Shown: positions 4,648 to 20,086 of the stretch, piece after piece
Layout: each line of letters begins with the position of its first letter
Position numbering within the stretch: position 1 is the stretch's first letter
DNA from: Gammaproteobacteria bacterium
GTDB taxonomy: Bacteria > Pseudomonadota > Gammaproteobacteria > QZLD01
Assembly (NCBI GenBank): GCA_033852075.1
Contig: JAWSVC010000014.1
Coordinates: 113 to 64,112, forward strand
Direction: 5' to 3'
Length of the DNA: 64,000 bases
Translations under genes and position numbers: made by a program
The notes under the pieces: generated by a model
Told to the model about the DNA's origin: nothing
Database searches by the model: none
Seen by the model: only the letters and a program-made list of their open reading frames with translations

Positions 4648-7137
4648 ATGCGTACCTATAATTTAGCTTTTCGCAGCCATCTAAAAAAAATATTACGACC
4701 ATTAATACTTGTTGTAACAATGGCCTTATGCTGCTTTTCATTTGCTCAAGAAACTTCCGACATTGTTATTACTATAAATGGATCAACAACAGTACACCCA
4801 TTAGCGAATGCTTTTTCTGCTCACTATTCCAAACTACACCCTGAGGTAAGATTTGATATATCTGCAACTGGTAGCGGAGCCGGTGCAAATGCCCTTATAG
4901 AAGGTAAGTGCGACATTGCAAATATGTCTCGCTTTATGAAACAGGCTGAATTCCAAAAGGCTATCGAAAATGGTGTTCTGCCGGTTTTTCATACGGTTGC
5001 CATGGATGCTTTGCTGGTTATTACTCACAAAGACAATCCGATTGATGGGCTTTCCATAAAGCAAGTTCGGCAAATTTATTCCGGCGAAATAACCAATTGG
5101 AAAGAGGTTGGCGGTCGTGATGCTCGAATAACCGTAATTGCTCGGGACTCAAAAAGTGGCACTCAAAAGGTATTCAATGAACTGGTAATGCAGGGACAAT
5201 CAACAAAACCGGAATTTGAGCTAGAACACAATCGCCTGATTCAAACAATGGTGCAAGATGATCCTAATGCTATTGGATATGGAGGTTTGGCCTTTGCAAA
5301 TGGTGTTAAGCCTTTAGCGGTTGATGGCGTTACCCCGGATAGAGAACATATTGCTGCCAGCAAATACCCACTTGCAAGACCTCTTTTTATGGTTACCAAT
5401 GGTTATCCCAAACTTGGTTCTCATATCCAACAGTTTATTAATTTTTATGCTAAGCCGGCTGGACGTCTTGCAGTTGAAGAAGCAGGTTATGTATCCTTAC
5501 AAGGATATGGTGAAGTAACACTTGAAGATGTATTCAAGATTTATTGGCCATGGCTTGCACTGAGCGGATTCCTTATTATGGTTGTATATGCAGCCAGATC
5601 ATATTTATATGCTCGTAATATAAATAAGCATAGAAACAAGCTTAATAATTTACAAAACTACTTATATAACATAATCAATTCCATGCCATCAGTGATAATA
5701 AGTGTTGATAGTAATGGAATTATCAAACAATGGAACGTTCAGGCTGAAAAAATATTTAATTGTTCTTTTGCTGATGCCATAGGATCTAATGCAAGTGAAT
5801 TAATTACTATCAAAAGCCCCATCATAGATAAGCTTTCTGAAAATATTATTTATAACGATGTTTTTTCCGACGTTGAGGTTGAGTCAGTAATAGGTGATGA
5901 AACTCGTTATTTTGATATTACATTATTCCCTTTAAAAGAAGGAGATAGTCAAGGAGCTGTTATTCGTATCGACGATGTAAGTAAAAAGGTTGAGATAGAT
6001 AAAACCCTAAAACAAAGTAGAAAGATGGAAGCAGTTGGACAACTTGCCGGAGGCATTGCACATGACTTTAAAAACATGCTTGGTGCCATTCTAAGCGCTA
6101 GCCAACTATTTCAGTACAGAATGAGCAAGGAAGACCCTAATTTTAAATATGTAGAAATTATAGAAAGCGCATCAGAACAAGCTTCCGATCTTATTAGCAG
6201 ACTTTTAGATTTTTCTCGCAGAAGCAGTATAAGTGCAAAAATTGAGTTGCACAGCGCCATTGAAAATAGCATCAAACTATTAAAGCACAGCCTGCAAAAA
6301 AACATATTAATCGAAACAGATTTTCAGGCAGAAGAGGACACCGTTTTTGGTGATTTTTCGCAACTCCAAAATGTATTTTTAAATCTTGGTATTAATGCTG
6401 GTCATGCAATGCCATCTGGTGGGCACCTTGCATTTAAAACGCGAATTGTTGAACTCACACAGGAGTTTTGTGAACAAAGTTCCTACGCAATAGAACCTGG
6501 AAAATTCTTTCTTGTAGAAGTATCTGATACCGGATCAGGCATCCCCAATAAAATCATAAAAGAAATATTTGATCCTTTTTTCACCACCAAAGATCCTGGC
6601 AAAGGAACTGGGCTTGGCCTTTCTTCTGTAAAGTCAATACTAGAACAACACCATGGAGCTATCAATGTATACAGCGAACTAGGAAAAGGCAGCGTATTCC
6701 ATCTTTACTTCCCATTAGTAGAACCCGAAAAAATAGCCAGTAAGGATATCAAAACACAGTGGATTACTGGTAGTGGAACTATACTTGTAATTGAAGATGA
6801 ACCTATGATTCGTAAGATGACAACATCTATACTTTCAGAGCTTGGTTACAACACCATAACTGCCGTCGATGGTATTGATGGAGTTATCCAGTATGAAAAA
6901 AACGCCTCTTCAATTGATCTTGTTCTGCTAGATCTTGTAATGCCCAAGGCCAGCGGACATGAATGCTTTACACATCTTAAATATATCAATCCAAATGTTA
7001 AGGTAATTGTGTTAACCGGATTCTTACAGCAACAATATCTTGATGAGTTGATTAAAGCCGGCGTATGTGGGTACATCTCAAAACCTTATCGAATCGAAGA
7101 CTTAAGTCAGCTGATTAATCATGTGCTTTCTACTTAG
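4648..7137 (+). CDS. Hybrid sensor histidine kinase (829 aa). Domain order: signal peptide, periplasmic PstS-like phosphate-binding domain, TM, PAS, HisKA, HATPase, C-terminal receiver.
   Basis: The N-terminal domain carries a PBP_like_2/PstS signature (ITINGSTTVHPL...SATGSGAGANALIEGKCDIANMSR). TM helix IYWPWLALSGFLIMVVYAA. H-box GGIAHDFKNMLGAI. G-boxes DTGSGIP...GTGLGLS. REC domain ILVIEDEP...LVLLDLVMP...KPY. Confidence 0.8.
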   Translation: MRTYNLAFRSHLKKILRPLILVVTMALCCFSFAQETSDIVITINGSTTVHPLANAFSAHYSKLHPEVRFDISATGSGAGANALIEGKCDIANMSRFMKQAEFQKAIENGVLPVFHTVAMDALLVITHKDNPIDGLSIKQVRQIYSGEITNWKEVGGRDARITVIARDSKSGTQKVFNELVMQGQSTKPEFELEHNRLIQTMVQDDPNAIGYGGLAFANGVKPLAVDGVTPDREHIAASKYPLARPLFMVTNGYPKLGSHIQQFINFYAKPAGRLAVEEAGYVSLQGYGEVTLEDVFKIYWPWLALSGFLIMVVYAARSYLYARNINKHRNKLNNLQNYLYNIINSMPSVIISVDSNGIIKQWNVQAEKIFNCSFADAIGSNASELITIKSPIIDKLSENIIYNDVFSDVEVESVIGDETRYFDITLFPLKEGDSQGAVIRIDDVSKKVEIDKTLKQSRKMEAVGQLAGGIAHDFKNMLGAILSASQLFQYRMSKEDPNFKYVEIIESASEQASDLISRLLDFSRRSSISAKIELHSAIENSIKLLKHSLQKNILIETDFQAEEDTVFGDFSQLQNVFLNLGINAGHAMPSGGHLAFKTRIVELTQEFCEQSSYAIEPGKFFLVEVSDTGSGIPNKIIKEIFDPFFTTKDPGKGTGLGLSSVKSILEQHHGAINVYSELGKGSVFHLYFPLVEPEKIASKDIKTQWITGSGTILVIEDEPMIRKMTTSILSELGYNTITAVDGIDGVIQYEKNASSIDLVLLDLVMPKASGHECFTHLKYINPNVKVIVLTGFLQQQYLDELIKAGVCGYISKPYRIEDLSQLINHVLST

Positions 7138-7140
7138 ACA
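6952..7140 (+). repeat. Copy 1 of an approximately 188-bp direct repeat. It is the 3' end of the hybrid HK gene and is repeated at 21541-21728.
   Basis: Direct comparison gives about 90% nucleotide identity. Encoded peptide here is ...CFTHLKYINPNVKVIVLTGFLQQQYLDELIKAGVCGYISKPYRIEDLSQLINHVLST. Copy 2 encodes ...CFTHLKYINPNIKVIVLTGFLQQQYLDELIKAGVCGYISKPYRIEDLSKMINHVIST. Confidence 0.85.
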
Positions 7141-7263
7141 CATCGATTTCAGGTTGGACGACATTTGATGAAAGCGGAGAATTATCGTTTGTTAAGAGGC
7201 CGAGCTTTTGATGAATGGAGTAGGGCGAGTTGCGTCCAAAATATAGGTTTGTCAATAACCTGA

Positions 7264-7342: not shown

Positions 7343-7708
7343 TTATTTACCTGTTTTTTCAGGAACATAAACCACTTCACCACTGGGTAGCTGATAGGCA
7401 ACACCCAACCGTTGACCGTTGCCACCAATCTCCTCTTCACTAATCTGGTAATGGTCAATTTTCACCCCCTGTTTGGTGATGATCTCCATATTATCCTTGC
7501 CTGGATTTTTTATAATTGTAATATCATCCTTAGATGTTAGTAATTCGGGTACGCTAAGAGCAGTAAACATCGCCAGTATTAATGCCACTGCAAAAACCAT
7601 AGCGACATCAAAAAGGTTAGCAACGGTTGCTAAAGGATCTTCGTCAACAGCTCCAAGCAATTGCTTATACCTTTGACTTTTTGAATTGGGCGTTATTCTA
7701 CCGATCAT
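7343..7708 (-). CDS. Small membrane protein, DUF2149-like (121 aa), with an ExbD/TolR-like single TM. It is the partner of the ExbB-like gene.
   Basis: TM segment DVAMVFAVALILAMF near the N-terminus. The start overlaps the upstream ExbB-like stop by 4 nt. Family assignment is from memory of the conserved ExbB-like/DUF2149/CobN-like neighbourhood. Confidence 0.5.
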   Translation of the reverse strand: MIGRITPNSKSQRYKQLLGAVDEDPLATVANLFDVAMVFAVALILAMFTALSVPELLTSKDDITIIKNPGKDNMEIITKQGVKIDHYQISEEEIGGNGQRLGVAYQLPSGEVVYVPEKTGK

Positions 7709-8394
7709 ACCTGGCGCTTATCTTTATTATAACTAACAGAGGCATTACCGGCAGACACCACTGCATTCTTAACCACACCAATAGGCCCTTGCACAATATA
7801 ACGGGTTAACTGCTCTGTTTGCATCATATCTCTGGCATACCAATATTGCCGGATAATCAGCATTACATAACACAATGCTCCAACTACCAAACCGGCAACG
7901 GTGGTACTAAAGACAATAATAAGTTCCTGAGACATCATCCCCAAATTACCCTGAGAGATGCTCATCAGGGCTGGTCCCATCGGGATCAATGTACCCATTA
8001 GCCCCAACATTGGTCCAATGCGCAATCCGATACGGATACGCGCCAGACGCTTTGCTGCATTAAACTCGATCTCCTGCAACACTTGTTCAAGCAATATTGC
8101 TTCACAGTGAGTTTTTTGCTTTGCCATAATCAATGAAGTTTGCTGCAATAAATACGGAGCGGCAATAGATGAAAGTAATTGGTTAAGGGAAATACGGGAA
8201 GCAGGGGCAGATTTACAAAAATCGCTCAATTGCTGATTCCATATATATCGATTAGTTCGTCGCTCTAACCACTCACGCAAAAACATACCAATTTCATACA
8301 GTGACCATAGCAATGCCAATAAAAGCCCAGTTATAACCGGAACCTTTAATGCTGCGGTGATGGTATAGAGAATAGATGTAACTTGCTCAATCAT
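7705..8394 (-). CDS. MotA/TolQ/ExbB-family proton channel protein (229 aa).
   Basis: Three TM helices with ExbB-like motifs (GPMLGLMGTLIPMGPAL and VFSTTVAGLVVGAL). Overlaps the CobN-like stop. Confidence 0.7.
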   Translation of the reverse strand: MIEQVTSILYTITAALKVPVITGLLLALLWSLYEIGMFLREWLERRTNRYIWNQQLSDFCKSAPASRISLNQLLSSIAAPYLLQQTSLIMAKQKTHCEAILLEQVLQEIEFNAAKRLARIRIGLRIGPMLGLMGTLIPMGPALMSISQGNLGMMSQELIIVFSTTVAGLVVGALCYVMLIIRQYWYARDMMQTEQLTRYIVQGPIGVVKNAVVSAGNASVSYNKDKRQV

Positions 8395-11300
8395 CTGCTA
8401 CATCCTTGATTCGCTGTTTTTTGCCCTGATGGTAGAATCCTACTGCAATCAACAATATGGCAATGATGATAACCACAATCAGAGTCAGGTGGCTCTGAAA
8501 AAAAGAGGAATACTGAACTGGTTTTTCCTGAGGCTGCTGCGCATTTTTCTTTTCCAGCTTTTTACCCTGTATCGGTTCATTAGAAGCCTTTCCAGGAGCG
8601 ATATCGGTAAGTTCAGCAGAGCGCTGTTGATATTGTTCAAGAATTTGGTTTAATTTTGGTGAATTTGGTGCAGAAAGTGTTTTATCAATAAACTGTTCCA
8701 GTTTTTCGTTTCCCCCTTCGCGTACTCCACTAGCGCGACCATGTTTGGCAACCGACTCGGCATAGGCAGCGGCAATCTCAAGACGGGTAGCTTCATCGGC
8801 CTGCCAATAACCTTTGCGTATGGTTTCCAGCATAGTTACAGCCAGTTTTTGAAATGCGTGCGGATTGGTTTTATCAAACCATTCTCTGATATCCAGATTC
8901 TGACTGTCACGCACATAAACATCGGCCACGTTATCCCAGTTGGCATCACTGAATGTCTGTTCACGCATGATTTCCCACCCCATCATGTTGTCGAGATTTT
9001 TAGCCAGGATATTGCCGCCGGCATAACCCTCTTTCATCATCGCCTTAATCCAGTTTGGATTGACCACGCGAATAAGTAAATCCTGCCTTGCAGCGGTAGT
9101 GGAATCAACCAGTTTTGCTTCGTCGGTATTGCGTACATCTACAAACAGCAGTTGCGGTTCGTTACCACTCATCTGCTTGATTGCAAGCGACAGTGTGCCA
9201 TCAACCCACCATGCAAATTTATTGGAAAGAACAAAATCGCGGTTATCGTACCAGCTACGCATAATTGTTTCGGTACCACTAAGAGCCTGGTCAAAAACTT
9301 CAGGTGCATTTTCGCCCCAGATCCCTTCGGTATATACGTGTTTATTGTATTTTAAGAACAGTTCAACAAGTTCCTCGCGACTTTCCCATTCTCCGGAACG
9401 CTCGGTCAGATAAAAAAACCAGTTGTGACTATCGATAATTTCTTCAGGTTTGGCGCCAAACATCCGTGCCTGCGAAAGCGCCAGTGCTCGCTGTTTTGCT
9501 ATACCTTCGGATTCAAGTTGTTTTCTTGTTGCTTCACTATGTTGGTAGACATAGTTATCCGGTTCTTTTTGCGATGCTGCCAGACGAATTGCGCGATCAA
9601 GCAGATGCATCATGGTTGGAAGTTCATCACGATAAACACTACGTGCCGACAAGAATACATCTATACGGGGACGCCCCAGTTCTTCGGCTGGAATCAGTTC
9701 AACATCACGCACCCGGTTCTTAGCATCCCACACCGGACGCACTCCCATCAAGTACAGTATTTGCGATTCAATAATGCCAAAATCACTATAGGTGGCAAAC
9801 GGAATCAGGCTGAACGCGATCTTCTGCGGATATTGGCCTTTGATTTCAAACTCGTCTGCCAGATGTTGATCTATTAACTTTTTCGCCAGATCCCATGATG
9901 CCTTGGATGGCAACTCTTCGGGATTGAGAATATAAAGATTGCGTCCACTTGGCACAACCGCCGGGTTACGTTCCGGACTACCTGATGGCCCCGGCAGAAT
10001 AAACCTACCCTCAAGTGCCGCAAAAACATTATCAATTTCATAATGAGTTTGCTGCAATCCGCTGTTCATCTCAACTGCCACTTCTAGTCCTTCAACAAAG
10101 GCTTCCGGCAATCCAGCAGCAGGAACTTCACCGTCACTTTGTTCCACCGCCTGAGCAAAAGTAAGGTTTTCCTGTAAAACCGATTTCAGAATCTCACGCC
10201 CTTTTTCTTTCAGGAAAAAGATATCCATCTCCTCTTCATCCTCATCATAGAGCTGCTTAAGACTGTTAAGAAAACGTTTTCCAAGACCGGAAACCAGATA
10301 AGGAACCAGTAATTCATCACTTGGAGGTTCTCCCAGAATATGCATTCCGGCCGGAACCTGTGCATTCATCAAGTCATGCAGGTGTAGTGAAAGCTGCTCA
10401 ATCTGCTCTTCCGTCATTAAATCATCCGCCCCTAAAGACAGATTTAAATCTCGATCCATACCGGTTGCAATAGTCTGTTCGGTAACTGCCCTGGCAAAGC
10501 GTTTCTTTAAAAAACCAATACCCAGTTGCTGATAACGATGAATATCTATCTCAAGATTAACCAGTTCATCCGGCAAACCTGCATCCATTAGCGGAGGAGG
10601 AATAAAGCCGATGTGCACAGCATGAGCACGCCGCTTGCTCGGCAATAATTCACTGGTATTGCTGGTCAGCCAGGGATTAATATTGGGCAGATCGCCAAGA
10701 AAAATATCACTCCAATCAGAACGCGACATAACCGCCATTTTCCCTTCATAAAGCCACTCCGAACCATGAGTACCAAAATGAACCAGAGCATCGGCATTAA
10801 AACCGTGTTGTAGCCAGAAATAGGAAGCAAGATAGTGATGCGTGGGAGGCAACAGACTTTCGCGAGTGTCCTGAACCTTCATCGAAGCGGTTAGAGTTTC
10901 ACCTTTAAGCGGCTGAGTAAATAGGATGACATTGCCTAAATCCAGTTTCGGCAAAACCAGATAGCGCTTGCCTTTATCTTCCCATACCATGATTTTTCCC
11001 GGTATCGCCCCCCACTGTTCAAGAACCTGATCCCGACGCCACTGCGGAATATATTCTTCAAACCATTGCTGGTATTGCTCCTCCGGAATAAGTACGGCAT
11101 GACCGCTACGCGCTATCCGGTCGATCTGGGCTGGCTCCCACTCTCCCATCTGTCGACCATGATCCATCATTTGAGTAACCAATTCCTCGGAACTGGATGG
11201 AGCATTATTAATCGTATATCCAGCTTTTTTCATTTCATCAAGAAACTTAATCATACTGCGTGGAGCATTCAGATTATGTGCAGGCCCGCTCATCAGACCG

Positions 11301-12472
11301 GATTTATCAGCTTCCCGGTCATAAATAACCAGTGCTATTTTTTTATTTTTATTAGATTTACGCCGCAGTTGTATCCAGCGTTTTGCGCGCCCGGCAATCC
11401 GGCGAATACGATCTGGGATTGGAATAATCTCTTCCCCGCTATCGTGACCGGTTTCGGTTCCACCAGCCGCCAGCGTTTCAGTGCCACCCTTCATCTCTGC
11501 CGATACAATTTGATGGAACTGCTGCGATTTCGACATGCCGGTCTGGTTGCTTTTGCGCCACTCATCTATTGACTCTTCGGTAAACCACATTGCATGCAGA
11601 CGTGGCACATCCAGTTTTTTCCAAAAATCCGGGCGCTCACGGGTATGTGAGTTCATAATCACCAGATCCGGTTTGAATGTTTCCAGTCGCTCTCGAAACT
11701 TTGGATCATCTGCAATAAAACTAACGGCCAGAATTTTCTGTTCGTGCAACTCATTAATGATTGCTTCTACCACACGAGGCTGATGAAACAGGACATGATG
11801 CCGCCATGTTCCCAATGCCACTCGAGGTGCATCTTGCAGATTCCACCCAGCCTTTTCAGCTTGCTGTAAAAATTGATCGACGGTTTCAAAATCACCATAT
11901 TGAGGGTGCCAGATCCTAACAACCTGTTCAGTAGGCGGAGGATTGATCTCACCCGGACGATTAAACCAGGTAATCAGCGCATAGCGTACCATCTCTTTCA
12001 TTGCTTCTCGTGACAAACCGTAATAGGACGCCATCTGTGGATCGCGCAGCATGTTCTCTGCGCCAATCCATTCCGCCCAGTTATTACATATCGGGCCAGG
12101 ACCAACACAAACCACTTTCAGCTGTGAACGTTTTTTCTTGGCGGTAACTACAGCCTGACGATATTGGTCTTTTAATTGACCTGAAGCAAATGAGGTTATT
12201 ATCAGATCAAATTTAGCCAAATCGGGCAACTTATCACGTCGAAACAGGTCAATCTTAAGTTTTGTAACTGTGACGTTCAGTTCATCCTGATAATCAGCCA
12301 TAGCATCAACCGCGCCACCTGCCATACCGATAACCCCAATGACAATTTTTTTCTCTGCCGGGGAGTTTTTTCTTTCTATCAAAGTATTATCAGCATCTGC
12401 TGCGTGCGCAATCTGAACCACATAGCTCAGCAAAAATATGGCTACTGGAATTAACCGAAAGATTATTTTCAT
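8387..12472 (-). CDS. CobN/Mg-chelatase-family large subunit homolog (1361 aa). It is exported (signal peptide) and has a C-terminal TM anchor. It resembles the HmuS type of TonB-receptor-associated (de)chelatases.
   Basis: Size is typical of CobN/ChlH. The conserved CobN motif ADALVHFGTHGSEWLYEGK is present. N-terminal signal MKIIFRLIPVAIFLLSYVVQIAHAADA. C-terminal TM LTLIVVIIIAILLIAVGFY. Confidence 0.75.
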   Translation of the reverse strand: MKIIFRLIPVAIFLLSYVVQIAHAADADNTLIERKNSPAEKKIVIGVIGMAGGAVDAMADYQDELNVTVTKLKIDLFRRDKLPDLAKFDLIITSFASGQLKDQYRQAVVTAKKKRSQLKVVCVGPGPICNNWAEWIGAENMLRDPQMASYYGLSREAMKEMVRYALITWFNRPGEINPPPTEQVVRIWHPQYGDFETVDQFLQQAEKAGWNLQDAPRVALGTWRHHVLFHQPRVVEAIINELHEQKILAVSFIADDPKFRERLETFKPDLVIMNSHTRERPDFWKKLDVPRLHAMWFTEESIDEWRKSNQTGMSKSQQFHQIVSAEMKGGTETLAAGGTETGHDSGEEIIPIPDRIRRIAGRAKRWIQLRRKSNKNKKIALVIYDREADKSGLMSGPAHNLNAPRSMIKFLDEMKKAGYTINNAPSSSEELVTQMMDHGRQMGEWEPAQIDRIARSGHAVLIPEEQYQQWFEEYIPQWRRDQVLEQWGAIPGKIMVWEDKGKRYLVLPKLDLGNVILFTQPLKGETLTASMKVQDTRESLLPPTHHYLASYFWLQHGFNADALVHFGTHGSEWLYEGKMAVMSRSDWSDIFLGDLPNINPWLTSNTSELLPSKRRAHAVHIGFIPPPLMDAGLPDELVNLEIDIHRYQQLGIGFLKKRFARAVTEQTIATGMDRDLNLSLGADDLMTEEQIEQLSLHLHDLMNAQVPAGMHILGEPPSDELLVPYLVSGLGKRFLNSLKQLYDEDEEEMDIFFLKEKGREILKSVLQENLTFAQAVEQSDGEVPAAGLPEAFVEGLEVAVEMNSGLQQTHYEIDNVFAALEGRFILPGPSGSPERNPAVVPSGRNLYILNPEELPSKASWDLAKKLIDQHLADEFEIKGQYPQKIAFSLIPFATYSDFGIIESQILYLMGVRPVWDAKNRVRDVELIPAEELGRPRIDVFLSARSVYRDELPTMMHLLDRAIRLAASQKEPDNYVYQHSEATRKQLESEGIAKQRALALSQARMFGAKPEEIIDSHNWFFYLTERSGEWESREELVELFLKYNKHVYTEGIWGENAPEVFDQALSGTETIMRSWYDNRDFVLSNKFAWWVDGTLSLAIKQMSGNEPQLLFVDVRNTDEAKLVDSTTAARQDLLIRVVNPNWIKAMMKEGYAGGNILAKNLDNMMGWEIMREQTFSDANWDNVADVYVRDSQNLDIREWFDKTNPHAFQKLAVTMLETIRKGYWQADEATRLEIAAAYAESVAKHGRASGVREGGNEKLEQFIDKTLSAPNSPKLNQILEQYQQRSAELTDIAPGKASNEPIQGKKLEKKNAQQPQEKPVQYSSFFQSHLTLIVVIIIAILLIAVGFYHQGKKQRIKDVADD

Positions 12473-12497
12473 CAGATCCCTTTATGTCACGATTAGA

Positions 12498-14525
12498 TTA
12501 AAGTTTGAAACTAATTGAACTATTAACCAATAACCCTGGCGCCTCTGCCGGAACCGGAGGTACACTGTAGATGTCATAGTTATCATCAAGCAGGTTTTCA
12601 AAACTTAGTGTCCAGGATGATGATGAATTAATATCACCGGAAAATGCTAAATCCAGAGAAATATACTCATCCCTGACTCCTGCCTCATCGTTATCATAAT
12701 CATCATAACGGTCACCTTCATAACGGGCATTCAAATCAATAACTATCCAATCAAACGCCTGAACATTGATTCCAATATTTGCCTTATGTTTTGGAACAAA
12801 CGGTAAATAATTACCAACTATGCCGCTGTCGGTATCATCTTCAGTCACAGTTGAACGATTGTAAGTATAACTTGTACGCAGCTCCCAACCAGGAACAAAT
12901 TCCCAGATTAATTCCGCATCAGTACCATACACCTTAACCCCGGTAATATTGTCAGCCTGACTTTCAAAGGCTGACAAAGTACGATATCCAATAAAATCTT
13001 CACTACGCGTATAATATGTGGCTGCCCGCACCATTAGATCTTTTGTGAAAAAGTGATCTACACCAATTTCTGTAGACCATGCCTTTTCAGGTTCAAGATT
13101 TGGATTACCGTAAAGCAAAGATGGGCCGCGCGAGAATACGGTATAAAGTTGAAATAATGTCGGCGCAGCAAATGATCTACCAATCGATGCACGCAAGGTA
13201 GTTTTTTCCCCCCAGCGATCAACCAGTGAAAGTTTTGGGTTTACTGCAGACCAGGAGCGATCTTCATACTCAATATCCACAGCCGGTCTTCCCATCCCCG
13301 GATTGGTATCGATACTTTTACCATCACTGCTCTGAGAGTAATCGATTCTAAAACCAGGTGTAAAAATCAGCTTATGGTTGGCATAGGCATAGCTCATCTC
13401 ATCCTGTGCAAACAATGAAACTAACAGCTGTTTACCTTCCGCAGTAGCATCACGATCTGCAACATAATCGTTATCCTTATTCATGTAGGTGATACTGGAA
13501 TCAAAGCCTACTGACAACAGATGATTCCTTCCTAACTCAGTATTAAGCTGGAAAAGTTGTCCATATTTTGTTGCATCATCATTTTCCGTATGATCATGAG
13601 TATCATATGTTGGTCTGGCGGAAAGAATAACCTCTCGCTGCAGCGAATTTATATACCCCAATAGAGATATATCCATGCTGTCATTAAGCCATCTTTCATA
13701 GGAAGCGGTTAACAGCGTTGTGCGATTAATCTGGTCGGTAAGTAAAATACCACGGCTATAATCTTCATTTACGTAGTTAAAACCAAGTGAGAATGAGGAA
13801 TCATCATCGATATCTACAGTATATTTACCAAGCATACTGGCATCGGAACGTTCATTTGCAACGTAATAGGGTTGCTCTTCAATAGCCTGAACATAGCCCC
13901 CGGTTTTGTATGCCTTTCCTCCAAGAACATAACCATGCTTTCCAGATTGCGCACCGCTATAAGCAGAAGTTGTAAAGGTATTTAAACTACCATAACCCAG
14001 TTTGAAAATACCGCCATTAATCTTATCAGGACTTTTGGTTATAATATTAATCACCCCTCCCATAGCGCCAGAACCATAAAGGGCTGACATTGGCCCACGC
14101 ACAATCTCGATGCGATCCACCATCTCTTTTGGAATCATTGACCAGTTAACCGATCCTCCCTGACCATCATTAAATGGTATACCATCAACCAATACCAAGG
14201 TTCTGCTTTGATCTTGAATGCCACGCAAGGTAATATCTCGCCCCGGCCCGCACTCGGCAATATGAGTTCTGGAATGGGAAACACTGGAAATACGCTTTAA
14301 ATAATCGTCAATAGTAACTTCTGCTGCCTGTTCCAAATCTTCACCAGACACCACAGTCACCATAGCCGGAGCTTCTACCCAGGCAGACTCCCTTCTGTTG
14401 GCAGTAACCACAACACCACCAATCTCGTCATATGAATCTGTTGCAAAACTAGCAGAGGGGATTGGAAGAAGAGTAATAGATGCCAGGAACAAGGCACACT
14501 TATGATTAAAAGAGAGGAAACACAT
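12498..14525 (-). CDS. TonB-dependent outer-membrane receptor (675 aa).
   Basis: Signal peptide. TonB-box-like DEIGGVVVTANR. Plug-domain motifs (RGPMSALYGSGAMGGVINIITK). C-terminal residue F (..SISFKL). Confidence 0.85.
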   Translation of the reverse strand: MCFLSFNHKCALFLASITLLPIPSASFATDSYDEIGGVVVTANRRESAWVEAPAMVTVVSGEDLEQAAEVTIDDYLKRISSVSHSRTHIAECGPGRDITLRGIQDQSRTLVLVDGIPFNDGQGGSVNWSMIPKEMVDRIEIVRGPMSALYGSGAMGGVINIITKSPDKINGGIFKLGYGSLNTFTTSAYSGAQSGKHGYVLGGKAYKTGGYVQAIEEQPYYVANERSDASMLGKYTVDIDDDSSFSLGFNYVNEDYSRGILLTDQINRTTLLTASYERWLNDSMDISLLGYINSLQREVILSARPTYDTHDHTENDDATKYGQLFQLNTELGRNHLLSVGFDSSITYMNKDNDYVADRDATAEGKQLLVSLFAQDEMSYAYANHKLIFTPGFRIDYSQSSDGKSIDTNPGMGRPAVDIEYEDRSWSAVNPKLSLVDRWGEKTTLRASIGRSFAAPTLFQLYTVFSRGPSLLYGNPNLEPEKAWSTEIGVDHFFTKDLMVRAATYYTRSEDFIGYRTLSAFESQADNITGVKVYGTDAELIWEFVPGWELRTSYTYNRSTVTEDDTDSGIVGNYLPFVPKHKANIGINVQAFDWIVIDLNARYEGDRYDDYDNDEAGVRDEYISLDLAFSGDINSSSSWTLSFENLLDDNYDIYSVPPVPAEAPGLLVNSSISFKL

Positions 14526-14612
14526 ATTTTTTCCTTAATAAAAACAAAACAACGTGTAATACAAAACAAGAGCGGCATATTAATGAAAAAACATGACACT
14601 ATTATTAAGCGC

Positions 14613-16223
14613 TTACATATCGTTAGATTTGATCGGATAATCAACCCATATATGACTTATTCCAAAGGCCCTTACAATAAAATAAATCAGTATTATCCCA
14701 ACCGTTATAATTATCGGCCAATTTGGAAATCTAGCCCATAAAGTAGGGCGATATGACCGCAAATTGATTACCCCTTTAATGATTGATTTGCTTTCGATAT
14801 CTGATTTTTTTACTACCCGCGCATTATCGATAATGGCTGCAACTCCGTAACCGGTTGATCGAATTGCCGGCAAGCCATATTCGGCACTTCTAAGAATAAG
14901 CATATCGAGCTGTTGCTCGGATTCGGAGCTATTACCAAACCATGCATCGTTAGATATATTTACAATCAGACTGCTTTGTTGCGAGATAATATCGTGTGAT
15001 AGTTTTGGCATACCAATTTCATAACAGATCATTGTAGCCAGTGAAATATCCCTACCTATATCCCGAAAGGTAATCGGCAGAGCATTCTCACCTTTATGGT
15101 AAAACTGGCTCTGTTGATATCCACCCAATGAAAATAATGCATATTTACGCTCAGCAAATGGCAATAGAAAATTTTTATCATAACGTCCTGCTGCTTCACC
15201 ATCCGGTGAATATAAAAATGCGGAATTATATATCCTTCTGCTCTCCCCCTTTCCGATAAAAGCAGGGGAACCGGTAAGAAGCCATGCCCCTGTCTTTTGG
15301 GTTATCTCCCTAATTACTTTTTTTGCTAATACAGAATTCTCTACGCCAGAAGTTATAGCGGTTTCCGGCCAAATGATAAGACGGGTATTCTCCGAATCAC
15401 CATCATCAAATGCCAGCAATGACATCTGCCGATAAATAGCCAATGTCTGTTGGTTAAATTCACTATTCCAACGCTGCTTTTGATTGATAACAGGATGAAT
15501 CAATGCAATTTCAATTTCATTTCCGCTTGATCCCTTATTATTAGGCAAGCTCATTACCCCAATCACGAATGTAAGAATGATTATAAAAAATGCCACAGTT
15601 GCCGCTTTAAAAAAGATAGGAATATTCTTAATGCCCCAAAAAAAGATCAGGCAACATAAAATAACTACAAAATGCAATCCAACACCACCGATGTATCCAG
15701 CAAGACCGTGCAAACCGGGAATATTTACAAGAGCAGCAGGGAAAAAACCCCAGCTATTTTCAGGGGAAATATTAATTCTTAACCATTCTATGGTTGTAAA
15801 TATTGATGCAGTTAATGCCGAAAAAAACACAGCTATTATGATGTTTTTCGTATTCACCAATAATGTAATTGGGTATTTGGCAATCTTTACCACCAACCCC
15901 ATCCAGATACCATGAGGAACTACTACCACCGATAAAAATAATAACCACGCAAGTAGCAAATAAAGCTGATAATGATTAGTCAGGGTTTCCAACAACCAAA
16001 AACTAATGGTTATTGCTTTTGTACAACCATAAATAAAACCGCAAATAAATGGATATTTAGATCTCTCTACCGCATAGAAAAAGATTAAAAATGCCGGAAT
16101 AACAATAATAAAACAATGGTATGGAGCAAAAACTAACCGCATAGCTATACCAGAAATCACACACAGCATCAGATAGTTCATTTCCCGGTGTCTTGTTTTT
16201 ATATCAATTAATTTTTGTAACAT
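14613..16223 (-). CDS. lnt: Apolipoprotein N-acyltransferase (Lnt) paralog. It has a polytopic N-terminal domain, a CN-hydrolase domain and a C-terminal TM. The start codon is uncertain (alternatives 16277, 16223 or 16181).
   Basis: Lnt catalytic-triad motifs are present: IWPETA, RYDKNFLLPFAE (E. coli YDKHHLVPFGEF) and MICYEI (E. coli ICYEI). N-terminal match LVFAPYHCF to Lnt LAFSPYDVW. The gene sits in an accessory island rather than the usual ybeX-lnt context. Confidence 0.75.
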   Translation of the reverse strand: MLQKLIDIKTRHREMNYLMLCVISGIAMRLVFAPYHCFIIVIPAFLIFFYAVERSKYPFICGFIYGCTKAITISFWLLETLTNHYQLYLLLAWLLFLSVVVVPHGIWMGLVVKIAKYPITLLVNTKNIIIAVFFSALTASIFTTIEWLRINISPENSWGFFPAALVNIPGLHGLAGYIGGVGLHFVVILCCLIFFWGIKNIPIFFKAATVAFFIIILTFVIGVMSLPNNKGSSGNEIEIALIHPVINQKQRWNSEFNQQTLAIYRQMSLLAFDDGDSENTRLIIWPETAITSGVENSVLAKKVIREITQKTGAWLLTGSPAFIGKGESRRIYNSAFLYSPDGEAAGRYDKNFLLPFAERKYALFSLGGYQQSQFYHKGENALPITFRDIGRDISLATMICYEIGMPKLSHDIISQQSSLIVNISNDAWFGNSSESEQQLDMLILRSAEYGLPAIRSTGYGVAAIIDNARVVKKSDIESKSIIKGVINLRSYRPTLWARFPNWPIIITVGIILIYFIVRAFGISHIWVDYPIKSNDM

Positions 16224-16290
16224 ATGATTAATAATGTAGATGTAACATGTCGGTAAATTTACATTCAGCAGACACATTCAGAAAATAAAT

Positions 16291-16527
16291 ATGCCTAAAG
16301 GAAAGATCCTAAAATACAAGAGCGGTTATAATCCTAACTCCAGCTCGATTGGTACCAACCTTACGCCATTATTAATTGGCGGAGCCGTTATATCATTATG
16401 CATTCCAATTATTTCAATTTTTGTAGCACGCAGAATCAAAAGAAAGAATAAGGCATCTGTTGATATTGATTCTAGTAATAATGATTCTGATAATATTGAA
16501 ACTGAAGATTTAACCGAGAAAGAATAA
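16291..16527 (+). CDS. Hypothetical small membrane protein (78 aa) with one TM and an acidic tail. It is divergent from the lnt paralog. Coding status is uncertain.
   Basis: ORF with TM LTPLLIGGAVISLCIPIISIFVA followed by RRIKRKNK. There is no convincing SD sequence. Confidence 0.25.
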   Translation: MPKGKILKYKSGYNPNSSSIGTNLTPLLIGGAVISLCIPIISIFVARRIKRKNKASVDIDSSNNDSDNIETEDLTEKE

Positions 16528-16552
16528 TCAATAATCTTATTTGCAACAAAAA

Positions 16553-17737
16553 CTACAAATACCCACGAACTACAAACGGGCATTCCGGATCAGGATCTGA
16601 TAACGAACCACTAACAAAACGGCTTACGGCATGACATCCACCTTTGCAGATATTTAGATAATTGCATTTGCTACAGATCGTATCATTACAATCATCCCAG
16701 TTTCTGAATGCAGAAAAGGTATCTGTTTTATTCCAGTTCTCAGCTAGTTGTTCGAGCGGCACATTTTCATTCTCAATAAAGCTACAAGGAGAAGCCAAAC
16801 CATTGGCATTAACTCCTATCAGCCAATTTCCTGCATCACATCCCATAATTGCGAAGTATTCCAGAATTTCACGAGGAGGATTATGAAAACAAATAAATGG
16901 AGTAAATGAGCAATCAAGTTTAAGACTTACCCGATATTTTCTAGCCAGCTTTTTTAACCTGGGATAAAGGTCAATAACCTGCTCGGGTTCTAACTTCATT
17001 TGATCGTAGATATCTTTACCACGCCCTGATGGTTTAAAGCGTAAGAATTCTATATCAACTATCTTTCTCTTTTTGGCATAGGCAATTATTGCCTCTAACG
17101 ATTCATAGTTTTTCCGAGAAATAACACAGTTGATACCAACCCTGATATCGTTTTGTTGCAGCAGTCCAATAGCTTGGTCGGCAAGCTGAAAATGCTCTTC
17201 CGGCCTGCTGGTTTCCAGTTTATTATCGACGCTATCCAGACTTACATTTACCTGTCCAAATACCCTACATTTTTCTGCCAACTCAGGAGTTATAAGATGG
17301 CCGTTTGTTGTTACGTTTGGAACAATATTGTATTGCCGAAAACATTCAGCAAGTTCAAAAAACCACGGAATGGAAAAGGACTCGCCGCCCCCCAGTGCAA
17401 CATGAAATATCTTCATTTCGGCAAGTTTATTGGCAACCGAAATGGCTTTTTGCAGATCTTCTTCTTTATCGTTTAGTTTTTCAATATCATTGCTGGAAGC
17501 CATGTAGCAACCGCTGCAACCTAGAGAGCAATAATCGGTAATGGCATAATGCGCCTCTATCGGCCCGGATAGTATTCCGTTATCTGGTTGATTCCATATA
17601 TCATCATCTTTGCGGCTTAATTCTTTAATATAATTTTTATCCACGAAGGTCAGTGCCGGAGGATTATTGGTGGCAATTATTCCGCCAAATGTTTCGTAAC
17701 GAAGAAGAAAGTCGTCTTGCATTATATTGTTCACCAA
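16553..17737 (-). CDS. Radical SAM enzyme with a C-terminal SPASM domain (394 aa). It is a probable peptide/cofactor-modifying maturase.
   Basis: CX3CX2C motif (CSLGCSGCYM) at about residue 70. C-terminal auxiliary-cluster cysteines (CDAGNW...SPCSF...CSKCNYLNICKGGCHAVS). Confidence 0.8.
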   Translation of the reverse strand: MVNNIMQDDFLLRYETFGGIIATNNPPALTFVDKNYIKELSRKDDDIWNQPDNGILSGPIEAHYAITDYCSLGCSGCYMASSNDIEKLNDKEEDLQKAISVANKLAEMKIFHVALGGGESFSIPWFFELAECFRQYNIVPNVTTNGHLITPELAEKCRVFGQVNVSLDSVDNKLETSRPEEHFQLADQAIGLLQQNDIRVGINCVISRKNYESLEAIIAYAKKRKIVDIEFLRFKPSGRGKDIYDQMKLEPEQVIDLYPRLKKLARKYRVSLKLDCSFTPFICFHNPPREILEYFAIMGCDAGNWLIGVNANGLASPCSFIENENVPLEQLAENWNKTDTFSAFRNWDDCNDTICSKCNYLNICKGGCHAVSRFVSGSLSDPDPECPFVVRGYL

Positions 17738-17771
17738 CTATTCATAGGCGCATTGCCGTCCAAAATAAGTT

Positions 17772-18809
17772 TTACGGCAGATATACCTGCCCCTGAGTCC
17801 CAATTTGAGATAACCGAAGATTAATATCCCAACGGACTTTAGCCCCTTTCATAAAGCCTGCCTGGTAAGTACCGCTGCCGCTTAATTTAGCAGAGGTAAG
17901 TACATTATCTTCAATTCTGGCAGTTACAGTGCCGTTTAGACTATGGAGCTTTATCTTCTGGTTTTTTTCATCAATATCTTCGCGTTTTGCGATATTCCAG
18001 GTAGCTGTATCTCCTGTTTCACTTACCAACTCAAGATCTATTACCGGCTCAATATCTCTGATTATCTCAACCCATTTTTTTCTAACCAGCGGCTCTCCGT
18101 GTGCTTTATCCAGCATCTCATTAACTAAAGCTAACTTGTCATTTTGGAATTGGTTTCCACTGGAATCGTAATATTCAGTTTCACCATCTACAAAATAATA
18201 ATCTCCGTTATAGATTGGCGCAGAAAAAACCTCTTGTTTACTGTTACTTTTACTTGTCTGATATAGCGCAAAATCGCCTTCATCATCCTTTAATAATTTG
18301 AATTTGCTTTTTACGATATAGCTTTCCCCGTCGAAATTATCGCGTCGATTGGTAAAGCTTGGCACCTCAAGTTCCATCTCCCCCGTATAGGCAAAGGAAG
18401 GGAAAAATATCATAAGATTTTTCACCGGCATGGCAAATTGCCGCAATTTTGAAACTGTTTCAAGCCGTTGCGGATCTTTGAAAAGGGACTCCTCCGGATC
18501 ATCGACTACCACGCTGGCAATCGTAATATTCTTTAACTTTGGATCGATTTTACTATCCTGGGAATACTGACTTTGCGCAATAGATTTATTGCCTGCATCC
18601 TTGTCTACTGAATGAGTGGTTTCAGTAATCTGCGGTTTGGGTTGCGACTCACTAATTTGTTTATCAGCTCGCATTACAGAATGCGCAATAGAACCAGATT
18701 TATTTTCTACTTGATTTGCTTCAGCTCTACCCCAATCTTTTGCAATATATAAAAACAGTGCAATAAAACATACCAGCGCAGAAACAACTGCAACTATCCT
18801 GTTCTTCAT
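17772..18809 (-). CDS. Hypothetical exported/membrane-anchored protein (345 aa).
   Basis: N-terminal hydrophobic anchor MKNRIVAVVSALVCFIALFLYIA. No recognisable motifs. Its start overlaps the stop of the upstream gene by 4 nt. Confidence 0.5.
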   Translation of the reverse strand: MKNRIVAVVSALVCFIALFLYIAKDWGRAEANQVENKSGSIAHSVMRADKQISESQPKPQITETTHSVDKDAGNKSIAQSQYSQDSKIDPKLKNITIASVVVDDPEESLFKDPQRLETVSKLRQFAMPVKNLMIFFPSFAYTGEMELEVPSFTNRRDNFDGESYIVKSKFKLLKDDEGDFALYQTSKSNSKQEVFSAPIYNGDYYFVDGETEYYDSSGNQFQNDKLALVNEMLDKAHGEPLVRKKWVEIIRDIEPVIDLELVSETGDTATWNIAKREDIDEKNQKIKLHSLNGTVTARIEDNVLTSAKLSGSGTYQAGFMKGAKVRWDINLRLSQIGTQGQVYLP

Positions 18810-20011
18810 ATAAAGAGCCTTTCGATATAAGTCATCAAACCCAATGAATAAAACAATATATATGTGATACTTAAATGTAATACCATCAAAGATGGAAGAT
18901 AAAACTTCATCTTTATTTCCAATCTTGAATCAAGCTCCATAATCAGACCGTTAGCAACAATAAAGAACAAAGTAACTACCATAATCAATATCATTAACCA
19001 AGGTTCCATTCCTGTCATATTGTTATGTTTTGCATCGGTTAGATAGAATATTACAACCGGCAATATTATTGCTGCGGGAATAAATAACATCGAATGAAAT
19101 AATCCGGTTTTCAGCCCGGAGGCAAGATTAATTTTTTTTATTGGAATAACCTTGTATATCGCGACTAAAGCACCAACCAAAGCTATGAGTGCAATTATAA
19201 ATCCTTTATAACGATTAGAATTAATATTAGCGCGCATCATATCATTTCCAATAAGCCTGCTGGCAAACCCACCTCCCTGTTGTTTAACCAAATTGTAGTA
19301 ACTTTGCGCCTTTCCGAAATTTTTTAATAAATAGTGGCAATCACCTATATTTTTCAAAACTACTACTTTGTGCGGCGAATTTGGATATTCATCTAATATC
19401 CGGTTATAGATTGGTATGGCTTTTCTTATGCTGGAAAATTCCTCTTCATTTTGTGGAATTCTTTGACGCCCCCGATATTCATTTGCCAACCAGAATAAGG
19501 CATCATCTAAAGCCTTATAGTCTGGATAATCCTTCACAAATCTTTCCAGCCTTTGGATAAATACCGCATTTTCTCCGGGACGATAGCTGTTGAGAATAGT
19601 TTGAAACTCTTTATAAGTTACAAGATTTATATCCTTATACCTTTTCAAGGCATTAATTCTTATTTCTGCCCTACGGGAATGCCTTCCATTATATATTTCT
19701 ATATATTCCTGATAGATCTCTAACGCCTCAGATGGTAAAAAAAGTTTTTCGTCGAGTATTACCGCCTTTTTAAAAAGCGATTCTTCTGCATACAACTGAT
19801 CGCCATATTTCGCATAAATCTCTTCATATGCACTTATTGCAACCTGATAGTTATTATAATTTTCATATGACTGAGCTTTTTTAAAAAGCATACGGGCTTC
19901 ATTTTGCCGGTCATCTGTTGTTGATTGTTGCTGTGCGTATAAAGAAAATGAGTAACAAAAACTTATTATAACTAATAAGGTATAAATAAGGGGTCGATGC
20001 ATTGGTTTCAT
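18806..20011 (-). CDS. Membrane protein with an N-terminal signal, a TPR-like periplasmic region and four C-terminal TM helices (401 aa).
   Basis: Signal MKPMHRPLIYTLLVIISFCYSFSLYAQ. TPR-like helical repeats. Four C-terminal hydrophobic helices. Confidence 0.5.
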   Translation of the reverse strand: MKPMHRPLIYTLLVIISFCYSFSLYAQQQSTTDDRQNEARMLFKKAQSYENYNNYQVAISAYEEIYAKYGDQLYAEESLFKKAVILDEKLFLPSEALEIYQEYIEIYNGRHSRRAEIRINALKRYKDINLVTYKEFQTILNSYRPGENAVFIQRLERFVKDYPDYKALDDALFWLANEYRGRQRIPQNEEEFSSIRKAIPIYNRILDEYPNSPHKVVVLKNIGDCHYLLKNFGKAQSYYNLVKQQGGGFASRLIGNDMMRANINSNRYKGFIIALIALVGALVAIYKVIPIKKINLASGLKTGLFHSMLFIPAAIILPVVIFYLTDAKHNNMTGMEPWLMILIMVVTLFFIVANGLIMELDSRLEIKMKFYLPSLMVLHLSITYILFYSLGLMTYIERLFI

Positions 20012-20043
20012 GTTTTTTACGAACTGGTCTAAGATGCAATGCA

Positions 20044-20066
20044 GGTAGATAAATCAATTATCTACC
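20044..20066. promoter_or_regulatory. Perfect 9-bp inverted repeat GGTAGATAA-atcaa-TTATCTACC. Candidate operator with a Fur-like GATAA...TTATC core, upstream of the minus-strand island operon.
   Basis: Read directly from the sequence. It lies in the 75-bp gap between the phosphoesterase stop and the start of the 401-aa gene. Confidence 0.3.
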
Positions 20067-20086
20067 TACTGCAACAGGAAAAATTA

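Follow-up and report, generated by a model that had tools for sequence, protein, structure and literature searches.

Loci that bring together a TonB-dependent receptor (TBDR), a CobN-like protein, an ExbB-like protein and a DUF2149 protein are already described, and two experimental anchors exist for this four-gene layout, namely haem iron in the Bacteroidota and zinc/cobalt starvation in Pseudomonas. The subject here is a further module of this kind in a 64,000-nucleotide stretch of contig JAWSVC010000014.1 from a gammaproteobacterium (the window, meaning the whole stretch that was analysed). In the hmuYRSTUV system, the membrane-anchored HmuS de-chelates haem to protoporphyrin IX (PPIX) and Fe(II) (PMC12583661); with this demonstration, which dates from 2025 only, it became the first such enzyme known in biology (Nath et al. 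2025, PMC12583661). The HmuS family has been defined by five features, which include a methionine-rich insertion in domain IV, an LSLDHxxEFMGG motif and a domain-V face formed by Ser-1014, Ser-1067, Gln-1198, Ser-1199 and Trp-1202 (Nath et al. 2025, PMC12583661). His-538 is essential, and domain V is proposed to provide the porphyrin-binding face and a second acid/base dyad (PMC12583661). The first two of the PA1922-PA1925 genes of P. aeruginosa encode a TBDR and a CobN-like protein, the third an ExbB/ExbD-family member and the last, PA1925, a DUF2149 protein (PMC9431628). In a znuA mutant starved of zinc, induction of the set reaches 44-147-fold (PMC4542158), Zur binds to the promoter (PMC8531726) and the proteins appear under zinc depletion only (PMC11761036), while the system is missing from most other Pseudomonas species and is not part of cobalamin synthesis (PMC10393844). 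A third relative, BtuS, is a TBDR-linked third branch of the CobN/ChlH superfamily, for which metalloporphyrin salvage was proposed; the family came to notice when B12 metabolism and its regulation were studied by comparative genomics (Rodionov 2003, to the extent that it is cited in PMC6460266). An earlier note on the window, made from its letters, had likened the module to the hmu loci and to predicted B12-, nickel- or cobalt-associated clusters, and had overlooked PA1922-PA1925 of the P. aeruginosa Zur regulon, the closest proteobacterial precedent.

The four genes of the module are co-directional on the minus strand, and the open reading frame list places them where the earlier note had:

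7343..7708, minus strand: DUF2149 protein, 121 aa (Pfam DUF2149, E 1.7e-31, 108.8 bits)
7705..8394, minus strand: MotA/TolQ/ExbB-family proton-channel protein (ExbB-like), 229 aa, three transmembrane helices (Pfam PF01618)
8387..12472, minus strand: CobN-like protein, 1361 aa, predicted to be exported and C-terminally anchored, with a class-I-chelatase fold (CobN/ChlH/HmuS superfamily; 'BtuS-type')
12498..14525, minus strand: TBDR (TonB-dependent outer-membrane transporter), 675 aa, with a signal peptide and the TonB box GGVVVTA

The TBDR gene is separated from the CobN-like gene by 25 nt, and the following junctions overlap by 8 nt (CobN-like/ExbB-like) and 4 nt (ExbB-like/DUF2149), so that the tight operon with overlapping stops and starts described earlier is real. 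Pfam support is strong for the CobN-like protein (CobN-Mg_chel, PF02514, E 1.2e-253 over residues 154-1229), for DUF2149 and for the TBDR (Plug, E 2.4e-25; TonB_dep_Rec_b-barrel, E 7e-45), and adequate for the ExbB-like protein (MotA_ExbB, E 1.3e-07, 31.8 bits against a cut-off of 22.9); the three models with which the earlier note had proposed to check the module, PF02514, DUF2149 and MotA_ExbB, are thus all matched. Its observation is confirmed and its interpretation is partly supported. The preferred reading, held tentatively and at somewhat less than an even chance, is that the locus encodes an uptake-and-de-metallation module of the hmuRSUV/PA1922-25 type, belonging to a divergent clade and horizontally acquired, in which the stator is probably coupled to the chelatase-fold protein.

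Three features are mapped on the CobN-like protein:

12401..12472, minus strand: signal sequence, residues 1-24 (...IAHA/AD), read from the sequence
8420..8488, minus strand: C-terminal transmembrane anchor, residues ~1329-1351, from hydropathy
10763..10780, minus strand: HFGTHG catalytic loop, residues 565-570, from an alignment of 89 superfamily members

Its N-terminus, MKIIFRLIPVAIFLLSYVVQIAHA/ADAD, is built like a signal peptide, with recognizable n- and h-regions and an AxA c-region. Near the C-terminus, a helix with a mean Kyte-Doolittle value of 3.09 (LTLIVVIIIAILLIAVGFY) is strongly hydrophobic and runs into KKQRIK. Because a signal-peptide-like N-terminus is combined with a single hydrophobic C-terminal helix and then basic residues, the bulk of the protein is probably periplasmic. 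The exported and C-terminally anchored topology suggested earlier is therefore upheld as a prediction, its cleavage site being read from the sequence, and it agrees with HmuS localization work that places that protein outside the cytoplasm on a membrane anchor (PMC13227078) and with the predicted export and membrane attachment of BtuS1/2 of B. fragilis (PMC6460266). Alignment of 59 clade members reveals a tether motif, P-[IV]-x-G-[KR]-[KR]-[LM]-E (EPIQGKKLEK in the window), about 25 residues ahead of the C-terminal helix, and the C-terminal alignment shows that G[FY] is kept at the cytoplasmic end of the helix. The Pseudoalteromonas type has both as well (EQVTGQKLEQ), and these are sites where a stator might make contact.

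In fold as in sequence, HmuS is the nearest solved structure, as the comparison suggested in the earlier note now bears out. A phmmer search against the PDB ranks HmuS (9d26) at 412 bits ahead of ChlH (340) and M. tuberculosis CobN (331). An AlphaFold2 (AF2) model of residues 30-1229 (pLDDT 89.8, pTM 0.89) returns HmuS 9d26 in Foldseek with a TM-score of 0.84/0.80 (E 1.4e-77), followed by CobN 7c6o (0.79/0.81) and ChlH (~0.72), and the six-domain class-I chelatase fold is present in the model. The protein falls below every NCBIfam CobN/BchH equivalog cut-off (NF004644, 698.6 against 1248 bits; BchH, 507 against 829). In a neighbour-joining tree of 32 superfamily members, the exported forms (the window clade, Prevotella HmuS, the Pseudoalteromonas type and two betaproteobacterial types from Cupriavidus/Pseudoduganella) are separated from cytoplasmic CobN/ChlH, and hydrophobic N and C termini are found in all exported-type homologues of the tree. 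A HMMER search of 1.84 billion cluster representatives, with residues 30-1229 rather than the full length as query, yields 3,892 superfamily members at E<=1e-3, of which only about 20 full-length representatives reach 35% identity with the window protein, whose own subclade collapses to a single one. With members dispersed among Myxococcota, Planctomycetota, Hydrogenedentes and a few gammaproteobacterial metagenome-assembled genomes, the clade is small and deep by this search.

Exported CobN-like proteins also occur in two further arrangements. On chromosome 2 of Pseudoalteromonas piscicida (L012, 2300-11900), a TBDR gene on the opposite strand, ExbB-like, DUF2149 and CobN-like genes and then a second TBDR gene follow one another in this variant order; this subfamily is widespread in cultured marine gammaproteobacteria, where it is annotated as 'cobaltochelatase subunit CobN'. 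On a Cupriavidus campinensis chromid (L013, 5407-14471), the gene of an exported CobN-like protein, which has both a signal sequence and a C-terminal helix, precedes those of a CobW/COG0523 GTPase and a cytoplasmic CobN, and no ExbB-like or DUF2149 gene is detected in that locus.

The catalytic core of the window protein is kept, while much of what distinguishes HmuS is not. The CobN signature reported earlier (VHFGTHGSEWL) is present at residues 564-574, and within it His-569 (VHFGTHGS, 564-571) is the equivalent of HmuS His-538 and is kept throughout the clade; the HFG(T/A)HG loop is found across the superfamily, so it is not specific to HmuS. In domain III, HFG[TSA]HG, Glu-572 and Glu-608 are invariant in the 59 clade members, and by alignment Glu-608 is the equivalent of ChlH E660 and HmuS E577. 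A one-residue deletion directly after the loop (HGSEW against HGSLEF) is specific to the clade. The equivalent of HmuS His-254 is likewise kept across the clade (NSHTR/TCHS), as His-276 within NSHTR in the window. In a MAFFT alignment with one HmuS sequence, the Met-79 position is occupied by Ala/Ser (TSFASG), and a methionine, Met-50 (GMAGG), stands in the adjacent beta1-alpha1 loop; a sequence search of the PDB with the N-terminal head domain gives no match. The LSLDHxxEFMGG motif (Asp-1208/His-1209/Glu-1212) is replaced by LSNKFAWWVDGT, with the clade form SNK[FY]xW[WY], and F, R, Y, D, D, K, F and W stand in place of HmuS residues S1014, S1067, Q1198, S1199, W1202, D1208, H1209 and E1212. 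None of the five HmuS residues predicted to hold the porphyrin propionates is kept. Of the 101 residues in the domain-IV insertion segment, 2 are Met, whereas Prevotella HmuS has 31 Met in a segment of 256, and Pfam searches and locus comparison find no HmuY or HmuT homologue at the window locus, where only R, S, U and V equivalents are present. The label 'HmuS-type' given by the earlier note therefore does not hold in the strict sense, as the methionine-rich insertion, a Met at the aligned Met-79 position, the His-1209/Asp-1208/Glu-1212 motif, the propionate-holding residues, hmuY and hmuT are all lacking, and the window protein does not appear to be a bona fide haem-specific HmuS. The clade has strongly conserved domain-V motifs of its own (SLxPFATY, FLSAxSxYRD, RSWxDxR and LxNKxxWW), and the cavity is therefore likely to be under selection, for a different chemistry or a different ligand. 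From these comparisons it is concluded that the protein probably works like the HmuS/BtuS type, yet lies outside the HmuS family.

The ExbB-like protein contains the family motifs GPMLGLMGTLIPMGPAL and FSTTVAGL, and in an alignment with HmuU and six other module copies the motifs of its second and third transmembrane helices are kept. By alignment, the DUF2149 protein crosses the membrane once, by a helix in which an Asp is conserved (NLFDVAMVF), and its small periplasmic domain is rich in beta structure and ends in GxRLGxAYxLxxGExVYVPE. The triad of CobN-like, ExbB-like and DUF2149 genes, side by side and read in one direction as in the window, recurs in 15 more loci of the clade; the loci span at least five phyla and their flanks are unrelated. 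A TBDR gene stands directly ahead of the triad in 11 loci, and in others the position is filled differently. In L005 (Hydrogenedentes, 8951-9910) and L018 (Planctomycetota, 7009-7998) a DUF1559/SBP_bac_10 protein whose N-terminus is of prepilin type (N-methylation motif) takes the place of the receptor, in L017 (8001-13154) a DUF1559/SBP_bac_10 domain is fused to the N-terminus of a CobN-like protein of 1717 aa, and in L019 neither a TBDR nor a DUF1559-type gene lies ahead of the triad. As the triad persists in loci that have no receptor, the invariant unit is the triad, and the part that captures the ligand varies with the type of envelope. This persistence where the receptor gene is missing is the chief reason for thinking that the proton-channel pair works for the chelatase-fold protein and not merely for the receptor. 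In L019, of Planctomycetota type, a gene for a TspO/MBR protein (tetrapyrrole-binding) adjoins the triad at 13946-14404, as a single case.

Cytoplasmic class I chelatases require AAA+ ATPases, and the periplasm is without ATP. By analogy, a stator driven by the proton-motive force is a plausible substitute for AAA+ partners in a periplasmic chelatase homologue, and to our knowledge no ExbB/Tol/Mot stator has been described in a conserved partnership with a chelatase-fold protein. ChlI/ChlD- or CobS/T-type partners are absent from the whole 64-kb window, as the earlier note had stated for ChlI/ChlD. In its fullest form, the proposal would be that the triad is an extracytoplasmic chelatase driven by the proton-motive force, in which the stator engages the C-terminal helix and tether in place of AAA+ proteins, the domain-IV loop and remodelled domain-V pocket set the metal and ligand, and the window clade does not act on haem b; this full form is considered rather unlikely. 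Set against it is the ordinary role of such proteins, in which the ExbB-like/DUF2149 pair is a dedicated Ton-system stator that energizes the receptor through the TonB of the host, and the CobN-like protein needs no energy. The canonical TonB box of the TBDR is as expected for this role, and published models of the hmu and PA1922-25 systems assign the pair to energization of the receptor (PMC12583661, PMC4542158, PMC8456098). The pair nevertheless stays with the CobN-like gene in the TBDR-less loci L005, L017, L018 and L019, and DUF2149 is not recognizably an ExbD protein. Furthermore, TonB is encoded neither in the window nor in any examined module, so that the 'self-energised' unit of the earlier note is incomplete in respect of the TonB that the box GGVVVTA calls for. 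A purely receptor-serving stator is accordingly rated as possible but on the unlikely side.

The receptor and the variable loops of the CobN-like protein provide hints on the ligand. The best NCBIfam match of the TBDR is TonB-hemin (TIGR01785) at 222.7 bits, below the cut-off of 316.85, and the second-best is TonB-B12 at 181.9 bits, far below the BtuB cut-off of 599.7. A His between the FRAP and NPNL boxes marks haem receptors, and none is found between the FAAP (FRAP-like) and NPNL boxes of the window TBDR, in the sequence FAAPTLFQLYTVFSRGPSLLYGNPNL, nor in its receptor clade. Alignment with eight syntenic orthologues reveals a plug motif with a conserved Cys (AECGPGR) and a loop motif, [DE]H[TS]E. 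Solved structures were set aside as a guide to the substrate, as the PDB matches (CirA, BtuB and PhuR) run through the plug domain only and do not discriminate. Where domain IV of HmuS holds the methionine-rich insertion, an acidic run is found in the window protein (YDEDEEEMD; YDEEEKDMD in its nearest relative), and nine Planctomycetota homologues carry His-rich inserts with up to 10 His, e.g., QHGHQHEASIDHGHDHHHHHA:

P0042-P0044, P0047, P0048, P0050, P0052, P0053 and P0056: carriers of His-rich inserts, aligned to residues ~735-765 of the window protein

The alignment points to this site as a metal-handling loop that may be tuned by lineage. The head and neck loops also differ between subclades, a distant one having the His/Cys-rich set GLHGG, QH and TCHS and that of the window GMAGG and TSHTR, and an RHHxxFHQP motif is conserved in the neck. 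Jointly, these hints point to metal handling with a lineage-specific preference for the metal, and do not name the metal or ligand of the window copy.

One account of such a preference is zinc or cobalt uptake like that of PA1922-PA1925, in which the receptor would import free or loosely bound metal and the CobN-like protein would bind and hand it on in the periplasm without enzymatic action. The four-gene content equals that of the Zur-regulated PA1922-25 operon (PMC4542158, PMC9431628, PMC8531726), the Planctomycetota members have His-rich inserts and the His/Cys head-neck set, and the AECGPGR Cys and [DE]H[TS]E of the TBDR clade could bind a metal ion. A fusion of cation-diffusion-facilitator and Band7 domains, two more Band7/SPFH genes and a Zn-dependent PhoA-type phosphatase are encoded nearby, but these neighbours lie outside the repeat-bounded segment that holds the module (see below). 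The window protein itself lacks the His-rich insert and the His/Cys set, the full chelatase cavity and catalytic loop that it keeps would be needless for a simple metal shuttle, and no Zur-box-like site is found upstream of the TBDR in nine loci. Non-enzymatic zinc or cobalt uptake is for these reasons judged improbable.

The regulatory sequences of the module were searched more widely. Rfam searches at gathering thresholds recover a tRNA and nothing else from the window, and nothing from six related loci. Upstream of the TBDR in the nine loci there is no box of Fur, Pho or NikR, nor one of Zur by either the gamma or the Pseudomonas consensus. The intergenic regions of the island hold no Zur box above background, by a consensus that is that of gammaproteobacteria and Pseudomonas and may not be that of the host. 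Control by B12, nickel or cobalt is thus not borne out: there is no riboswitch in the window or the six related loci, and no Fur, Zur, NikR or Pho box above background. A Fur-like cluster at 16462-16500 was discarded as unexceptional, since it is a five-mismatch match of which the window contains 21, mostly in coding sequence. One conserved element does stand upstream of the receptor gene:

14575..14610, minus strand: conserved ~34-nt element upstream of the TBDR, core AAT.GTGTCAT.TT.TTT.A.TA.TAT, common to the window and L020

The element recurs in L020 at ~555-590 although the upstream genes differ (the CobN-like proteins of the two loci are 78% identical), and it is a candidate promoter or operator with no convincing match to the Fur, Zur, Pho or NikR consensus.

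A second account is that the module is a true haem de-chelatase system of the HmuS type, in which the receptor would import haem and the enzyme would strip Fe(II) and leave PPIX. HmuS is the best match in sequence and structure, the His-254 equivalent is kept, the Met of the GMAGG loop in the closest subclade might replace Met-79, the TBDR scores best against a haem/haemoglobin receptor model, and the motor genes are common to hmu. However, the methionine-rich insertion, a Met at the Met-79 position, the LSLDHxxEFMGG motif and the propionate-binding residues of HmuS are missing, as are hmuY and hmuT, the receptor has no His between its boxes and scores under the family cut-off, and no Fur box is found. 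Haem de-chelation in the strict HmuS sense is considered quite unlikely. A module for corrinoid (B12-type) salvage or remodelling, suggested by the historical name BtuS from B12 comparative genomics (Rodionov 2003, as far as cited in PMC6460266), by the TonB-B12 score and by a plug that resembles BtuB, is very improbable given the missing cobalamin riboswitch, the distance of that score from the BtuB cut-off and the lack of btuCDF or cob genes nearby.

The preferred reading of an uptake-and-de-metallation module would work as follows. The TBDR would bring a metal-bearing ligand into the periplasm, most likely a metallo-macrocycle or another tight metal chelate. Once exported and held at the inner membrane by the helix near its C-terminus, the chelatase-fold protein of ~150 kDa would take up the ligand, and the metal would be removed or exchanged in the central cavity by the domain-III loop with His-569, Glu-572 and Glu-608. 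The MotA/ExbB-family protein and DUF2149 would form a proton-driven stator that delivers the mechanical work otherwise obtained from AAA+ partners (ChlI/ChlD, CobS/CobT), and this stator may also energize the receptor through the TonB of the host. The freed metal would enter through the host's own inner-membrane transporters. What the analysis shows directly is the gene content, the fold, the residues kept and lost, the synteny and the structure of the island; in this scheme we infer the periplasmic location, the de-metallation chemistry and the coupling of the motor to the chelatase.

Several results weigh against the scheme. The domain-V porphyrin face and second acid/base dyad proposed for HmuS are entirely different in the window protein, and HmuS-type catalysis is therefore not assured in it. 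B. fragilis without both BtuS paralogues still de-chelates haem (PMC6460266). With a normal TonB box on the TBDR, the simplest reading of the adjoining ExbB-like pair is an ordinary Ton-system paralogue. The DUF2149 protein does not match the ExbD Pfam model (PF02472) even at E<=10, and a weak single-sequence AF2 model of it (pLDDT 65) gives nothing in Foldseek at E<=0.001, with no match to an ExbD/TolR fold. Neither result supports homology of DUF2149 to ExbD, the fold comparison coming from that weak model. Of the ExbB/TolQ-like and ExbD-like pair claimed in the earlier note, the first member holds as a MotA_ExbB protein and the second gives no ExbD match; DUF2149 may be called 'ExbD-like' only by analogy, from its topology, its conserved transmembrane Asp and its operon position. 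Finally, no regulatory signal that would name the limiting nutrient was found.

As the asparaginyl-tRNA synthetase AsnS of the window is 92% identical to a protein of a Gammaproteobacteria metagenome-assembled genome (MAG) and 75% identical to those of Alteromonas, Saliniradius and Aestuariibacter, the host appears to be an uncultured gammaproteobacterium near the Alteromonadales, in agreement with the host proposed earlier. The window is indicated to be chromosomal because RecB/RecC, AsnS and aspartokinase are encoded in it. The module lies in a segment of 14.6 kb bracketed by direct repeats:

6954..7148, strand not assigned: left 195-nt copy, the functional 3' end of the hybrid histidine-kinase gene 4648-7137
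21545..21739, strand not assigned: right 195-nt copy, an orphan 3' fragment of a receiver domain

Repeat finding and pairwise alignment show that the two copies are 90% identical and 14,591 bp apart, and that they comprise the last ~183 nt and the stop codon of the kinase gene. GC content over the module is the highest in the window (41-46% in three 2-kb windows from 8 to 14 kb), with ~36-40% in the remaining repeat-bounded segment and 33-41% elsewhere. No integrase or transposase is found among the nine genes of the segment, which looks like a Campbell-type integration of circular DNA that carried a homologous kinase fragment. Beyond two gammaproteobacterial MAG contigs, the closest CobN-like homologues come from Myxococcota, 'Deltaproteobacteria', Hydrogenedentes, Planctomycetota and a Bacteroidota-like genome, and cultured marine gammaproteobacteria (Pseudoalteromonas, Thalassotalea, Colwellia, Shewanella and Microbulbifer) have the other exported CobN-like subfamily, at 28% identity; a search seeded with the Pseudoalteromonas-type protein finds marine genera only among its best 120 matches. 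In a scan of metagenomes for an empty site, with the flanking histidine kinase as query, the identity of relatives did not exceed 37%. The accessory, horizontally acquired status of the module is well supported because the repeats, the raised GC over the module, nearest homologues in other phyla and the different subfamily of cultured marine gammaproteobacteria all agree, and the accessory island of the earlier note is sustained.

The repeat-bounded segment is shared with a second block, of five envelope genes, block B (14613..21322, minus strand), assigned where stated by NCBIfam or Pfam:

14613-16277, minus strand: Lnt-like protein, passing the lnt equivalog cut-off
16553-17737, minus strand: radical-SAM/SPASM protein (Pfam/NCBIfam)
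17772-18809, minus strand: hypothetical protein
18806-20011, minus strand: TPR protein (Pfam/NCBIfam)
20087-21322, minus strand: exported purple-acid-phosphatase-like protein (Pfam/NCBIfam)

Block B adjoins the module also in the gammaproteobacterial MAG relatives L010 (1-6253) and L020 (627-12361), where the module comes before block B, against block B before the module in the window, as in a circular permutation. The block B genes are absent from the Myxococcota, Planctomycetota and Bacteroidota loci examined, so the linkage is limited to the gammaproteobacterial lineage and a part for block B in the system is unproven. An 85-aa open reading frame at 16326-16583 was considered as a radical-SAM precursor peptide and dropped, as its translation looks non-genic. 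Just outside the island, three successive Band7/SPFH genes occupy 21721-25347, one of them fused to a cation-diffusion-facilitator domain; HflC/K-like PA2437-39 belong to the Zur regulon of P. aeruginosa, and the parallel may be a coincidence. The island is flanked by the hybrid histidine kinase 4648-7137, which has an N-terminal PstS-type phosphate-binding domain, and by a PhoA-type alkaline phosphatase gene (25667-27376), which together with the phosphatase of the island give the region a phosphate-scavenging flavour. Farther away, a protein of 1683 aa (29000-34051) combines Ser/Thr kinase, AAA_16, GAF and GGDEF domains and has a tRNA gene downstream (34359-34445, minus strand), and an aryl-polyene-like lipid cluster at 57310-63503 encodes Ketoacyl-synt_2, acyltransferase, acyl carrier protein, AMP-binding plus ApeI dehydratase, family 2 glycosyltransferase and LpxL-like acyltransferase functions.

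The PA1922-25 operon is among those most strongly induced by zinc starvation in P. aeruginosa. The locus described here suggests that the HmuS and PA1922-25 systems belong to one wider TBDR/CobN-like/ExbB-like/DUF2149 family with deep clades of different active-site chemistry, and it adds as new leads the remodelled pocket of its clade, the series of Met-rich, His-rich and acidic loops and the triad that occurs independently of a receptor. The proton-channel pair may power the extraction of metal in a compartment that has no ATP. If true, coupling of the motor would explain the roles of HmuU/HmuV and PA1924/PA1925 and provide a new client for the Ton/Tol/Mot stators; if false, the module would be an ordinary though rare accessory metal-uptake operon.

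Among the described systems, the motor proteins provide what appears to be the best-conserved link, and it leads to hmu. The hmu locus of Prevotella nigrescens is annotated as HmuY, TBDR, CobN (HmuS, 1469 aa), a hypothetical protein, MotA/TolQ/ExbB and DUF2149, so HmuV is itself a DUF2149 protein; the window DUF2149 is 45% identical to Prevotella HmuV (E 2e-30) and the ExbB-like protein is 52% identical to its Prevotella counterpart over the channel core. The resemblance to hmuYRSTUV drawn by the earlier note holds for R, S, U and V, as the window combines a TBDR, a predicted anchored extracytoplasmic protein of class-I-chelatase fold and equivalents of HmuU and HmuV. With HmuS, the window protein shares the HFGTHG loop and the Glu-577 and His-254 equivalents, but identity is only ~23-28% and its N-terminus resembles a cleavable signal peptide and not a retained anchor. 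PA1922-25 has the same four gene families in the same order in one operon, as compared by published annotation (PMC4542158, PMC9431628), and is as patchily distributed; it differs in being bound by Zur and induced by zinc starvation, with no Zur-like box found at the window module or the other loci of the nine. The clade groups in the neighbour-joining tree with the exported forms, a set that matches the BtuS family, yet it forms a separate deep branch, mostly of Myxococcota and Planctomycetota, with domain-V motifs of its own. CobN-CobST and ChlH-ChlID have the same fold of six domains and, in domain III, the same catalytic loop, down to the Glu that is E660 in ChlH, but are cytoplasmic, biosynthetic and driven by ATP through AAA+ partners, whereas the window protein is predicted to be exported and is paired with a stator and no AAA+ partner. 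ExbB-ExbD, TolQ-TolR and MotA-MotB are like the window pair in that a MotA_ExbB protein with three transmembrane helices is followed, in apparent translational coupling, by a small protein with a single Asp-containing helix; the window pair differs in having DUF2149 as its small subunit and in that no third component of the TonB/TolA type is encoded with it.

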